A stretch of DNA of 56,968 nucleotides from Luteolibacter sp. (GTDB lineage: Bacteria > Verrucomicrobiota > Verrucomicrobiia > Verrucomicrobiales > Akkermansiaceae): assembly GCA_049430545.1 (NCBI GenBank), contig JBMTCD010000001.1:1-56968 (forward strand), read 5' to 3'. Made by a program: the position numbers and the translations under genes. Under the pieces are notes generated by a model. That model had not been told where the DNA came from and ran no database searches. It was given only the letters and a program-made list of their open reading frames with translations. Below, piece after piece: positions 25,857 through 30,122 of the stretch. Every line of letters starts with the position of its first letter. Positions within the stretch are counted from its first letter, which is position 1.

Positions 25857-26321
25857 TCACCGCATCACATGGTCGAGCAACAGCGACTGGAACGCACAGT
25901 AAAACCGCGAGCGCACGAAGGCGCCGCGGACAGCCGGCTCCAGATCGGCGGGCGACAGCCCATCGGCGGATTCGAAATGATGGATGCCGTGCAATGCCAG
26001 CCTCGCCTGATTGAGCGCGCTGTACCAATGCCATGCGTTCTCCGGCGTGATCCAGAGGTGGCCGTCACCGGCTTCCTCCGCAGCGCGGATCGCCCCGGCC
26101 ACATGCGCCAGGTCGGCTTCGAAGCCTTCTTGAAGCTCGGGCTCGACGATATCCCGCCAGTCGGCGGAAAGCTCCTCGTCGGTGATCAGCGCGCCGAGGC
26201 GGCTCGATAGCCTTTCATCGCCGCACACCGCATCGCGGGTGATGCCCCGCAGCACGAACCAGTCGCCCGCGTCCTCGACATCGACGCGCAGTCCTCCTTC
26301 GAGCGTGGGCGTGATTTTCAT
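25857..26321 (-). CDS. DUF2017 family protein
   Basis: WYSALNQARLAL; coupled to clpS. Confidence 0.7.
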   Translation of the reverse strand: MKITPTLEGGLRVDVEDAGDWFVLRGITRDAVCGDERLSSRLGALITDEELSADWRDIVEPELQEGFEADLAHVAGAIRAAEEAGDGHLWITPENAWHWYSALNQARLALHGIHHFESADGLSPADLEPAVRGAFVRSRFYCAFQSLLLDHVMR

Positions 26322-26599
26322 ATATCCTTTTCCAGCGTGGCCTTGAGCTGGTGGGCGTGAAGCTGCTGGACATGCAATTCCGCCCGCTCGCGCTGGCCGC
26401 TCCATACCACCGAACGCCCCTGCTCGTGCACCTCGCGCATCAGCGTGTGGGCCTTTTTCTCGTCGTAGCCGAAGATCTTCATGAACACCCGGGTGACGTA
26501 GCCCATCAGGTTCACCGGATCGTCATGGACAATCACTTTCCACGGCAGGTCCAGCGACGCCTTGTCGCGCGTGACGGTGAGCGTGTCGGAATCGGTCAT
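26318..26599 (-). CDS. clpS: ATP-dependent Clp protease adaptor ClpS
   Basis: WKVIVHDDPVNLMGYV, LMREVHEQGRSVV. Confidence 0.9.
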   Translation of the reverse strand: MTDSDTLTVTRDKASLDLPWKVIVHDDPVNLMGYVTRVFMKIFGYDEKKAHTLMREVHEQGRSVVWSGQRERAELHVQQLHAHQLKATLEKDI

Positions 26600-26603
26600 G
26601 GTT

Positions 26604-29135
26604 TCAGGTTTCGGCCGTGGCCGGCTCGGGCGTGTCGATCCACCTGCCGTGTTCGCGGATCAGGTCGATGAGGCGCTCGACCGCCTCGTTTTCCGGAATG
26701 TTGAACTTCACGGCGGTCTTGCCGACGTAAAGGTTGATCTTGCCCGGCGCGCCGCCGACGTAGCCGAAATCCGCATCCGCCATCTCGCCCGGGCCGTTGA
26801 CAATGCAGCCCATCACGGCGATCCGCACGCCCTTGAGATGGCCGGTCGCGGCGCGGATTTTCTGGGTGGTGGATTGCAGGTTGAACAAGGTGCGGCCGCA
26901 GCTCGGGCACGCGACGTAGTCGGTCTTGAAAATGCGCGCGCCGGCCGCCTGCAGGATGTTGTAGGCAAGCCGCAGCGACTGCCCCGGCGCGGTTTCGCCC
27001 CGCACCAGCACCGCGTCACCGATGCCGTCGCACAACAGCGAGCCAAGGTTTTGCGCGGCGCTGAGCAGGGTGGGGAGGAAATCGCGGTTTTCCCGCGGCG
27101 GATCGAGCGTGTCCTTCAACAAGACCGGGTGCCGCGCGGCCACCCGCCCGGCCAGCAGCCGGAACGCGGGGATGACCGCCATTCCCACATGATCCGCCAC
27201 TGTCACCAGGCATGGCTCTACGCGTGCGTTGACCGCCGCCACCGCATCCTCATCCCGCGGATCGATCTCCACCACACCGGCCTTCTCGATGATGATCTCC
27301 GGCTTGAAATCGCCCATCGATGCAATCTTGTGGGCCAGCGCGTTCCAGCGGTCCTGCGTGGTGAAGACGCGCACCGTGTTCTCGCCGCCAAGCTCATGCC
27401 CCATGATCGTGACCGCAGAGCTACGACGCCTTTCGTAGGAAAACGGATTGTAGGACGGGGTGAAAGTAACAGTGGCTGCGGCGTCACGCCGCAGGCCGTG
27501 GTCGCGGCGTCCCGCCGCGATATCATCATAAACACAACCGACCCAGGGCCAATCAGCCGACAGCTTGCGCGGATTGTTCAACACATACAGCACCTGATTG
27601 CGCAAGTCGTCGCCATCGCGCACGAGATGGTCATAACTCTCCTTCTGCCAAACCTGACTGCTATGACCGGACAGTTTGTTGATCTCATGGGCGGTAAAGC
27701 TCTTCCATGAATGCAAAACCTTCTCCAGATCCACACCGGTGTAGGTTCTGACCACCACATGCACATGGTTGGGCATCACACACCAGGCGAGCAAATCGTA
27801 ACATTGTCCGTCGAAGTGCCGCAGCGCGTCCGAGACAATTTGTGCGTTGTCGGAATCACGCAGGACGCATGAGCCATGGCCGCGGTCGAGTTCGGGATCG
27901 AGTTCGGCTTCTTGCATTGCCGCAAGCTCCGCGCGGATTTCCAGCATTCGGCCGACAACGCTGCGTGAGCCGGCGGATCGGGCGAAACCCGCCAGCTTCT
28001 CCAGTAAAATTTGCCGCTTGCACCGCAACTTGTCGAAAACCTCATCCGGCAGCGAGTCCGCCAGACGGAAGGTCACTGCATAAGTGCCACCATTGAGTTT
28101 CCAATGAGGCAGGAAACCGGCGTCGGATTTCTCGACCATTTCCCAGTCGATGCGGATGGATCCGATGTCGTCCTTGATGGAACGGCCGCAGGACGCGGCC
28201 GCCACGGCCTGCGGCGAGACGCCGCAGCCACTTGTAACATTGTATGGTTCCACCATAGCCTGCGCCACGGGGATTTCGTGCACCGAATCTTCCGTCAGCG
28301 AGACCCGCACGGTGTCGCCGATGCCATCGGCGAGCAGCGAGCCGATGCCGATGGCGCTCTTGATGCGGCCGTCCTCGCCGTCACCGGCCTCGGTCACGCC
28401 AAGATGGATCGGATAATTCCAATCAGACCCTTCCGCATCGAGCCGCGCGACAAGCAGCCGGTAGGCCTCGATCATCACCTTCGGGTTGCTCGCCTTCATC
28501 GAGAACACGAAGTTGTGGTATCCGTGATCGCGCGCGATGCGGGCGAATTCCAGCGCGCTCTCCACCATGCCGAGCGGCGTGTCGCCGTAGCGGTTCATGA
28601 TCCGGTCCGAGAGCGACCCATGGTTGGTGCCGATGCGCATGGCGCGGCCGAGTTCCTTGCACAGCTTCACCAGCGGGGTGAATTCCTCGCGGATGCGCTG
28701 CAGCTCCTCCTGGTATTGCGCGTCGGTGTATTCGCGGATTTCGAACTTCTTCTTGTCGGCGTAGTTGCCCGGGTTCACCCGGATTTTTTCCACCCACCTG
28801 GCGGCTTCGAGCGCTGCATCGGGCTTGAAATGGATGTCCGCCACCAGCGGAACCTCACAGCCGGCGGCACGGACCTCGCGCGCGATGTTTTCCAGATTCG
28901 CCGCGTAAACCTTCGTCTGCGCGGTGATGCGCACGATCTCGCAGCCGGCATCCGCCAGCTCCAGCACCTCGCGCACACAGGCGGCCGTGTCGCGCGTGTC
29001 CGTGGTGATCATCGATTGCACCCGGATCGGGTTTCCTCCGCCCAGGCCGAGGTGGCCCACCCTCACCTCGCGCGTCGCCCGGCGCGAGTAGCGGAGCAAA
29101 TCAGGGCAATAGCGGAGCAGCGCGGAATCGATCAT
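26604..29135 (-). CDS. ispG: (E)-4-hydroxy-3-methylbut-2-enyl-diphosphate synthase, three-domain type, with an in-frame transposase insertion
   Basis: PIRVQSM, VADIHF, RVNPGN, RIGTNHGSL, HLGVTEAG, GDTVRVSLT, CPSCGRT, AVMGCIVNGPGE; frame open across a 256-codon insert. Confidence 0.95.
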   Translation of the reverse strand: MIDSALLRYCPDLLRYSRRATREVRVGHLGLGGGNPIRVQSMITTDTRDTAACVREVLELADAGCEIVRITAQTKVYAANLENIAREVRAAGCEVPLVADIHFKPDAALEAARWVEKIRVNPGNYADKKKFEIREYTDAQYQEELQRIREEFTPLVKLCKELGRAMRIGTNHGSLSDRIMNRYGDTPLGMVESALEFARIARDHGYHNFVFSMKASNPKVMIEAYRLLVARLDAEGSDWNYPIHLGVTEAGDGEDGRIKSAIGIGSLLADGIGDTVRVSLTEDSVHEIPVAQAMVEPYNVTSGCGVSPQAVAAASCGRSIKDDIGSIRIDWEMVEKSDAGFLPHWKLNGGTYAVTFRLADSLPDEVFDKLRCKRQILLEKLAGFARSAGSRSVVGRMLEIRAELAAMQEAELDPELDRGHGSCVLRDSDNAQIVSDALRHFDGQCYDLLAWCVMPNHVHVVVRTYTGVDLEKVLHSWKSFTAHEINKLSGHSSQVWQKESYDHLVRDGDDLRNQVLYVLNNPRKLSADWPWVGCVYDDIAAGRRDHGLRRDAAATVTFTPSYNPFSYERRRSSAVTIMGHELGGENTVRVFTTQDRWNALAHKIASMGDFKPEIIIEKAGVVEIDPRDEDAVAAVNARVEPCLVTVADHVGMAVIPAFRLLAGRVAARHPVLLKDTLDPPRENRDFLPTLLSAAQNLGSLLCDGIGDAVLVRGETAPGQSLRLAYNILQAAGARIFKTDYVACPSCGRTLFNLQSTTQKIRAATGHLKGVRIAVMGCIVNGPGEMADADFGYVGGAPGKINLYVGKTAVKFNIPENEAVERLIDLIREHGRWIDTPEPATAET
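27472..27520 (+). repeat. two tandem GTGG-led REP hairpins (one end of the insert)
   Basis: GTGG-CTGCGGCG-TCA-CGCCGCAG and GTGG-TCGCGGCG-TCC-CGCCGCGA. Confidence 0.85.
28183..28231 (-). repeat. two tandem GTGG-led REP hairpins (other end, inverted)
   Basis: minus strand GTGG-CTGCGGCG-TCT-CGCCGCAG and GTGG-CGGCCGCG-TCC-TGCGGCCG. Confidence 0.85.
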
Positions 29136-29363
29136 CGTCACGGCGGCTATAGCCGAGGAATCCGCCCGCGGCAACGCCGACAATCGCCCGGAATCGCCCG
29201 CTGCCCGGCCATGGCGGCAATTCATGCGCGGAAAATCATCAGCTGAGCCCGCCCGGCGGAATTTTTTCCCTAGCCCGCGGGCGGAAGCCGATTAACCTCC
29301 CGGCGTCGTCCGGAGTTTCCGCAGACACTTCCCGGCGGCCACCGGTTCCAGCGCATTTCCACC

Positions 29364-30122
29364 ATGAATCTGACACTCAAAGTTTGGCGACAAGCCGGGC
29401 CGCAGGCCCAGGGCAGGATCGAAACCTACGAGGCCAAGGACATTCCCGCAGAAGCCTCGTTCCTGGAAATGCTCGACATCGTCAACGAGCGCCTCGTCCT
29501 CGATGGCCAGGAGCCGATCCACTTCGACCACGACTGCCGCGAGGGCATCTGCGGCACCTGCTCGCTCACCATCAACGGCATCCCGCACGGCAAGGAGCGC
29601 GGCATCACCACCTGCCAGGTTCACATGCGCAAGTTCCGCGACGGCGACACCATCTGGATCGAGCCGTTCCGCGCCAACCCCTTCCCGGTCATCCGCGACC
29701 TGATTGTGGACCGCAACGCCTTCGACCGCATCATCGCCGCCGGCGGCTACATCGACGTCCGCACCGGCTCGGCCGTGGACGCCAATGCCATCCCGATTCC
29801 TAAGGACAAGGCGGACGCCTCCTTCGACGCCGCCGCCTGCATCGGCTGCGGGGCCTGCGTGGCCTCCTGCAAGAACGCCAGTGCCATGCTCTTCGTCGCC
29901 GCCAAGGTCTCCCACCTCGGCCACCTGCCGCAGGGCCAGCCGGAACGCGACAAGCGCGTGCTCGCCATGGTCCGCCAGATGGACGCCGAGGGCTTCGGCA
30001 ACTGCACCAACCAATACGAGTGCGAGGCCGCCTGCCCGAAGGAAATCAGCGTGGACCACATCGCCCGCCTCAACCGCGACTACGCCGCCGCCGTCGTGCG
30101 CGAGCAGCTCGTCGCCCCGTGA
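29364..30122 (+). CDS. sdhB: succinate dehydrogenase/fumarate reductase iron-sulfur subunit
   Basis: [33 protein letters not shown]. Confidence 0.93.

Follow-up and report, generated by a model that had tools for sequence, protein, structure and literature searches.

In the window analysed here, the whole stretch of 56,968 nucleotides from Luteolibacter sp. (contig JBMTCD010000001.1), the ispG gene carries a complete REP-RAYT-REP cassette within its reading frame. From the sequence comparisons, we consider the cassette to be probably a selfish element which sits in the linker of IspG, is exchanged between species, is likely translated unspliced and likely spreads itself by nicking its REP ends. 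The minus-strand frame runs from the ATG at 29135 to the stop codon at 26604-26606 (843 aa) with no internal stop, and a second in-frame ATG is located upstream, at 29225. The frame that the original prediction had followed from IspG through REP-encoded peptides and a Y1 domain back into IspG without a stop was borne out, on the minus strand, and all of the motifs that it named were found in the translation (among them LPHW at aa 342, MPNHVH at 454, WQKESYDH at 496, YVLNNP at 517, CPSCGR at 743 and GCIVNGPGE at 776). The features are as follows.

26604..29135 (-): ispG reading frame, 843 aa, in the order TIM barrel, cassette, A* domain, Fe-S domain (Pfam/NCBIfam profiles, ORF translation)
28233..29135 (-): IspG A domain (TIM barrel), aa 1-301 (Pfam GcpE 21-321; model matches 4MWA and 3NOY)
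27471..28232 (-): REP-RAYT-REP cassette, 762 nt, aa 302-555, in frame and stop-free
28209..28231 (-): left outer REP, with a GTGG foot, an 8-bp stem and a 3-nt loop, translated within SGCGVSPQ
28183..28205 (-): left inner REP, with a GTGG foot and a hairpin
27522..28160 (-): RAYT (HUH/Y1) domain with a helical insertion (profiles, AlphaFold model, 4ER8 alignment)
27759-27767 (-): RAYT H457 and H459
27585-27587 (-): RAYT Y517, aligned with Y115 of E. coli TnpA-REP
27498..27520 (+): right inner REP, inverted
27472..27494 (+): right outer REP, inverted, 1 base different from the left outer REP, translated within GLRRDAAAT
26607..27470 (-): IspG A* domain and Fe-S domain, aa 556-843
26898-26909 (-): IspG CPSC
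26784-26810 (-): third IspG Cys, within GCIVNGPGE

In the Pfam search, GcpE was split into two stretches with Y1_Tnp between them at aa 446-501 (29.6 bits, cut-off 23), and the NCBIfam model REP_Tyr_transpos (NF047646) scored 70.5-74.6 bits, which is below its cut-off of 80. The HUH and YxxxNP catalytic motifs that mark RAYT membership are present as NHVH and YVLNNP. In an alignment to E. coli TnpA-REP (4ER8), H457, H459 and Y517 fall on its residues H59, H61 and Y115, and the accessible part of PMC8266576 gives Y115F as the catalytic mutant. The host protein has the three-domain (A-A*-B) architecture, with a TIM barrel, an A* domain and an Fe-S domain with three cysteines, and this form is attributed to verrucomicrobial IspG in the portion of PMC10663253 available; the cassette is positioned at the A/A* junction. 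Each end of the cassette has two GTGG-footed REP hairpins in tandem and the ends are mutually inverted, forming an inverted repeat of 58 nt with 83% identity (folding z of the ends, -5.3 and -4.8). The cassette measures 760 nt from GTGG to CCAC, or 762 nt with one extra base on each side, and alleles with the cassette are a net 247 aa (741 nt) longer than the shortest of the close empty alleles; these values correct the insert size of 768 nt proposed initially. Its GC content is 0.59 against 0.64-0.65 in the flanks, and the GC3 of the insert is 0.66 against 0.85. Downstream, clpS starts 4 nt past the ispG stop, with a DUF2017 gene after it (window 25857-26599, -), and the three genes probably form one operon.

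The genome assembly is fragmented (386 contigs), which could favour an assembly chimera or a one-off accident, but this reading is already refuted and we give it practically no weight. The 5' junction is crossed by independent contigs, one from run X1 (27485-28563, 0 differences; this run may itself be the source sample) and one from run X4 (27781-28400, 15 differences), and the 3' junction is covered solely by overlapping contigs, so that the support of the junctions by reads, on which the original prediction depended, was found in this form. Among the listed joints in four DNA runs none skips the cassette, contigs being unable to show absence. The same IspG-RAYT fusion occurs in about 100 database proteins, two of which are from named species, and the 92 ispG cassettes of the genus include those of near-closed genomes and of two named species. 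These 92 cassettes, together with the metH and leuS cassettes of the same genome described below, dispose of the one-off accident that the original prediction had considered as its refutation.

To describe the distribution of the cassette, 157 ispG loci of the genus were read in three sets (30 + 100 + 27). The first 30 loci are biased toward filled alleles; the next 100, taken in rank order among 150 matches listed of 187, comprised 63 filled and 37 empty alleles; and the last 27, which include short-frame rows, added seven intact cassettes, plus one copy with a Tyr-to-Asp change and another with a frameshift. In total, 92 loci have a whole cassette, 58 are empty, six are cut or unreadable, and one (G019) has a remnant together with a cassette at a second site. 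The 58 empty alleles establish, by comparison of orthologues, the empty site that had been anticipated. Both catalytic His and the Tyr are present in frame in 90 of the 92 whole cassettes. Asp replaces the catalytic Tyr in the cassette of G182, and the cassette of G203 has a frameshift, which is either real or an assembly indel; the insert-free ispG of a genome from another genus (G051, locus L222) is also frameshifted, through an assembly error or a broken gene, and therefore such indels do occur in these assemblies. The second cassette site lies in the A* domain of ispG (L031 in G019; L140:108-3482 in G090). G019 has a truncated remnant at site 1 and a full cassette at site 2, and G090, which was read apart from the 157 loci, has both sites filled in a frame of 1125 aa. 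In the phylum sample, 84 of the 86 other ispG matches are in frames of less than 800 aa and the two longer frames showed no HUH motif; thus, the cassette seems to be confined to one genus among those searched. In three loci (L227 in G183, L229 in G182, and L175), the REP-derived tethers have expanded, still in frame, to tandem arrays with as many as about eight units.

Comparison of the alleles indicates that the cassette is gained, lost and replaced between species at one site in ispG. Exchange between species at this site had been overlooked in the original prediction. In the tree of the ispG flanks, which served as the host tree, filled and empty alleles are interleaved, and the sister of the present allele (G083) is empty. 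When the empty alleles were scanned against the observed REPs, a REP scar was found in 10 of the 45 tested, compared with none of 45 controls, so that many of the empty alleles are losses; a stricter scan found scars in 4 of the 45. The RAYT tree conflicts with 32 of the 33 supported flank splits, whereas the control comparison of the N- and C-terminal flanks conflicts with 2 of 18. The corresponding log-likelihood costs were 5322 for RAYT versus flank and 452 for the N-versus-C control (the program warned of few replicates), and the control also rejects a single tree. Of 14 nearest-host pairs, 6 carry replaced cassettes, as do 19 out of 31 close pairs. Close flanks with unrelated cassettes are seen in G161/G196 (309 of 757 nt differ inside the cassette), G027/G063, G111/G112 and G130/G132, and the reverse, nearly identical cassettes in distant flanks with the edges near the REPs, in G081/G161, G016/G193 and G065/G198; in G081/G161, 18 of 757 nt differ inside the cassette and 48 of 300 immediately to the right of it. 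G162 and G196 share a tract that begins at the gene start and takes in the cassette. Among pairs of distant hosts, recent transfers of the cassette alone were no commoner than those of flank windows (2 versus 0-4 of 2825 pairs), and ispG itself recombines; therefore, ordinary homologous recombination could bring about the swaps. Outside the REP ends, the bases vary freely among alleles, so there is no fixed target site, and a target-site duplication suggested by the present allele was dropped for the same reason.

The low dN/dS, the keeping of the frame, the covariation of the hairpins and the matching of the two ends indicate that maintenance extends to the RAYT protein as well as to its catalytic residues and DNA ends. 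The dN/dS of the RAYT, whose determination had been proposed with the original prediction, has a median of 0.11 and a maximum of 0.30 (15 of 20 independent nearest pairs, those with usable dS), indicating purifying selection; over 102 overlapping pairs it was 0.135, against 0.094 for the flanks. The linkers have 38 distinct lengths, all in frame, the Fe-S cysteine motifs are intact in all of the 79 complete filled alleles, and the codon position at which the left REP begins is identical in all 73 alleles scored. The REP stems are paired at 96% of positions, versus 69% when shuffled (65 distinct sequences), with compensatory changes, and the left and right REPs within one allele differ by 1.7 nt mismatches, versus 6.2 when shuffled. 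The REP subtype tracks the RAYT clade. An in-frame ATG between the left REP and LPHW is found in just 7 of 82 alleles and is not conserved.

Three fates of the insert had been left open initially, namely tolerance as a fusion, removal at the RNA or protein level, and removal at the DNA level. The tolerated fusion fits best, the second found no support, and the third holds in the form of in-frame deletion over evolutionary time. With an alignment of 88 sequences, AlphaFold gave a model of the 843-aa protein with a mean pLDDT of 78.6 and a pTM of 0.64 (a single-sequence run, with a pLDDT of 35.7, was set aside). The barrel, the RAYT and the A* domain are mostly at 75-95 and the Fe-S domain at 57-80, and the values fall below 50 at aa 302-317 and 541-558, which are the REP-encoded peptides. 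The model matches the IspG structures 4MWA and 3NOY and TnpA-REP 4ER8. Both enzymes are thus predicted to fold, with the REP-encoded peptides as disordered tethers, and on this model the cassette is likely an unspliced, looped-out domain of IspG. TnpA-REP is active as a monomer, a property that would be compatible with its being fused. If instead the insert were removed after transcription or translation, by an intron, by RNA excision or by proteolysis that frees the RAYT, the mature IspG would be normal; the 58-nt inverted REP arms could pair in RNA, and the disordered tethers could be cut. However, the Rfam search for known RNA classes, run across 26400-29400, gave no match even at an E value as high as 1, the Pfam search of the ispG frame found no intein family, an HN-C/S/T-like intein end is present in only 4 of 81 alleles and is not conserved, and the read-through kept at 38 lengths would be needless for a spliced intron. 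We regard removal of this kind as very improbable.

The present genome has two further in-frame RAYTs, as follows.

G000:C101:6300-9932 (-): metH, whose activation domain contains an in-frame RAYT cassette with a REP type of its own (locus L004)
G000:C11:945-4199 (-): leuS with an in-frame RAYT after the editing domain (locus L005)

A survey of other sites covered 60 regions picked among 150 matches listed of 346, and four loci of the present genome; the regions were chosen by likeness to the query, and the count of intact motifs is biased accordingly. The hosts found were metH (two sites), leuS, carB, a DUF5107-TPR protein, a CARF-adenosine deaminase and UreD, and 17 RAYT genes in the surveyed regions are free-standing. 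The in-frame RAYT of carB is at L165:1666-5682 and those of the DUF5107-TPR protein are at L139:1978-6102 and L145:2093-6232. Among database matches, AlaRS and a methyltransferase were seen as further hosts by Pfam label only. In L193:1770-4397 (+), the RAYT is in frame between a CRISPR-associated CARF-type domain and an adenosine deaminase, and in two genomes (L177:1129-2658 and L185:1923-3470) it is at the N-terminus of the urease helper UreD. Two other loci of the present genome, L006 and L007 (contigs C41 and C182), have free-standing RAYTs with longer, different flanking repeats. The RAYTs group by host site rather than by genome, with clades for ispG site 1 (84/84, support 0.98), ispG site 2 (2/2), the two metH sites (21 and 4) and leuS (17, support 0.61).

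Copies of the ispG-type REP are dispersed in 58 of the 62 genomes with a filled ispG and in 11 of the 18 with an empty one. They lean toward the subtype of the resident cassette (permutation p 0.002, kin not being independent), and many genomes also hold subtypes other than that of their own cassette. The present genome has just two dispersed copies of the REP pattern, and a blind scan of it for GTRG hairpins found no large REP family; some empty genomes are rich in REPs (31 in G092, 33 in G136). The ispG-type REP flanks no non-ispG RAYT among the 64 loci scanned, yet it is dispersed, and these subtype-matched copies give a weak hint that the embedded enzyme has been active.

A single ispG was found in the genome (the assembly is 93% complete), and dxr and ispH are present. 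The mevalonate route could not be found complete, as three of its enzymes that were searched for in the genome (HMG-CoA synthase, mevalonate kinase and diphosphomevalonate decarboxylase) gave no match over their cut-offs. For these reasons, IspG is likely essential in this host, although the argument is weakened by an orphan HMG-CoA reductase beside a membrane-protein gene (G000:C74:999-2333, -). Of the second ispG or mevalonate pathway that, together with an inactive fusion, would have told against the original prediction, this one enzyme is the part that was found.

For the probable selfish cassette, we envisage that the RAYT would be expressed from the promoter and start codon of the host gene. 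The HUH/Y517 domain would bind single-stranded GTRG hairpins and would nick and rejoin DNA as TnpA-REP does in vitro, which could scatter the REPs of the cassette through the genome, and REP ends or REP scars in ispG may provide entry points for an incoming cassette. Because frameshifts and stops would destroy IspG, the element would decay only via point changes or exact in-frame deletion. The original prediction, in which the A/A* linker gives the element an intein-like shelter although intein motifs are lacking, holds in its core, as no intein family was found and the insertion is recurrent and under selection; the shelter would be gained through the tolerance of the linker and not through splicing.

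The recombining flanks of ispG, the lack of excess of cassette-only transfers, the frequent loss (58 empty alleles) and the existence of a dead copy (G182) are also what would be expected of a tolerated passenger, which would have inserted a single time, do no harm in the linker and be moved only by ordinary homologous recombination of ispG, with selection for foldability and not for activity. Folding, however, leaves unexplained the near-invariant His, His and Tyr (90/92) as well as the compensated DNA hairpins and the matching of left and right REPs, new sites have been colonised in ispG, metH, leuS and carB, and a neutral insert of 247 aa would be expected to be lost, not swapped; we consider such a passenger unlikely. 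Slightly more doubtful is a domesticated function, in which the host would keep an active RAYT for REP-based genome editing or regulation and the fusion would serve its expression or metabolic coupling. RAYTs have been argued to be domesticated (PMC5581495, in the part available), and purifying selection and dispersed cognate REPs would suit this, but sister species are repeatedly without the cassette, cassettes are replaced wholesale, and the hosts (IspG, MetH, LeuRS, CarB and a TPR protein) are unrelated enzymes and proteins, which argues against a specific partnership.

As judged from its sequence, the cassette is assembled from known parts: it is like an intein allele but is no intein, and it is a RAYT but no standard REPtron. 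Inteins with homing endonucleases are in frame in conserved housekeeping genes, form one clade per site, are patchy and laterally spread, and are lost only by exact deletion. The cassettes are likewise site-specific, patchy and laterally spread. They differ from inteins in having no Hint domain or splicing residues, in occupying a variable linker and not an active site, in encoding an HUH enzyme for single strands rather than a double-strand endonuclease, in having DNA ends of their own and in leaving REP scars. IStrons, which are elements of the IS200/IS605 family spliced as introns, are relatives with a Y1 transposase that neutralise their insertion into genes. They are excised from RNA, whereas the ispG cassette has no intron signal and keeps the frame, and the catalytic RNA structure of a group I/II intron or IStron was not found.

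The cassette shares with REPtrons the HUH and YxxxNP core, the alignment of Y517 on Y115 of 4ER8, the flanking inverted GTRG-footed hairpins and the dispersed cognate REPs, and among the subclasses of Quentin et al. 2018 (PMC6006769, in the text available) its motifs most resemble those of 2.7 or 2.4. REPtrons are free-standing genes with a start, a stop and extragenic REPs, fixed in position and inherited vertically, whereas the cassette lies inside a housekeeping frame with no stop or conserved start of its own, its REPs are translated, and it is exchanged between species. According to the available sections of the respective papers, RAYT inheritance is mostly vertical (PMC5581495) and 'there is no evidence of tnpAREP mobility' (PMC8266576). 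Palindromic DNA translated in flexible linkers is also known from intragenic REPs and Rickettsia palindromic elements; short in-frame REPs occur within genes, with Opitutus terrae among the richest (PMC3733652, in the part consulted), and the scars in the empty ispG alleles are alike. These elements are non-autonomous and of 20-50 aa, whereas here the whole element including the enzyme is translated.

In the literature searched, which covered few subscription papers, no description was found of whole RAYT cassettes inside housekeeping frames. RAYTs have been described as immobile and domesticated, with their maintenance unexplained, and the cassette offers a selfish explanation of their persistence. 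The ispG cassettes also provide a natural system, with named carrier species, for REPtron mobility, and suggest that a core enzyme can carry a nuclease of 250 aa as an internal domain. We raise tentatively the idea that they may represent a third class of self-sheltering homing elements, next to inteins and self-splicing introns, namely never-spliced single-strand HUH cassettes that would home via their own REP ends from one allele of an essential gene to another and be active inside a working host enzyme; if true, this would be direct evidence of the mobility of tnpA-REP genes. Such fusions are annotated plainly as IspG, MetH or LeuRS and were filtered from at least one survey, the accessible text of which states that long proteins were dropped as 'gene fusions or annotation errors' (PMC6006769).
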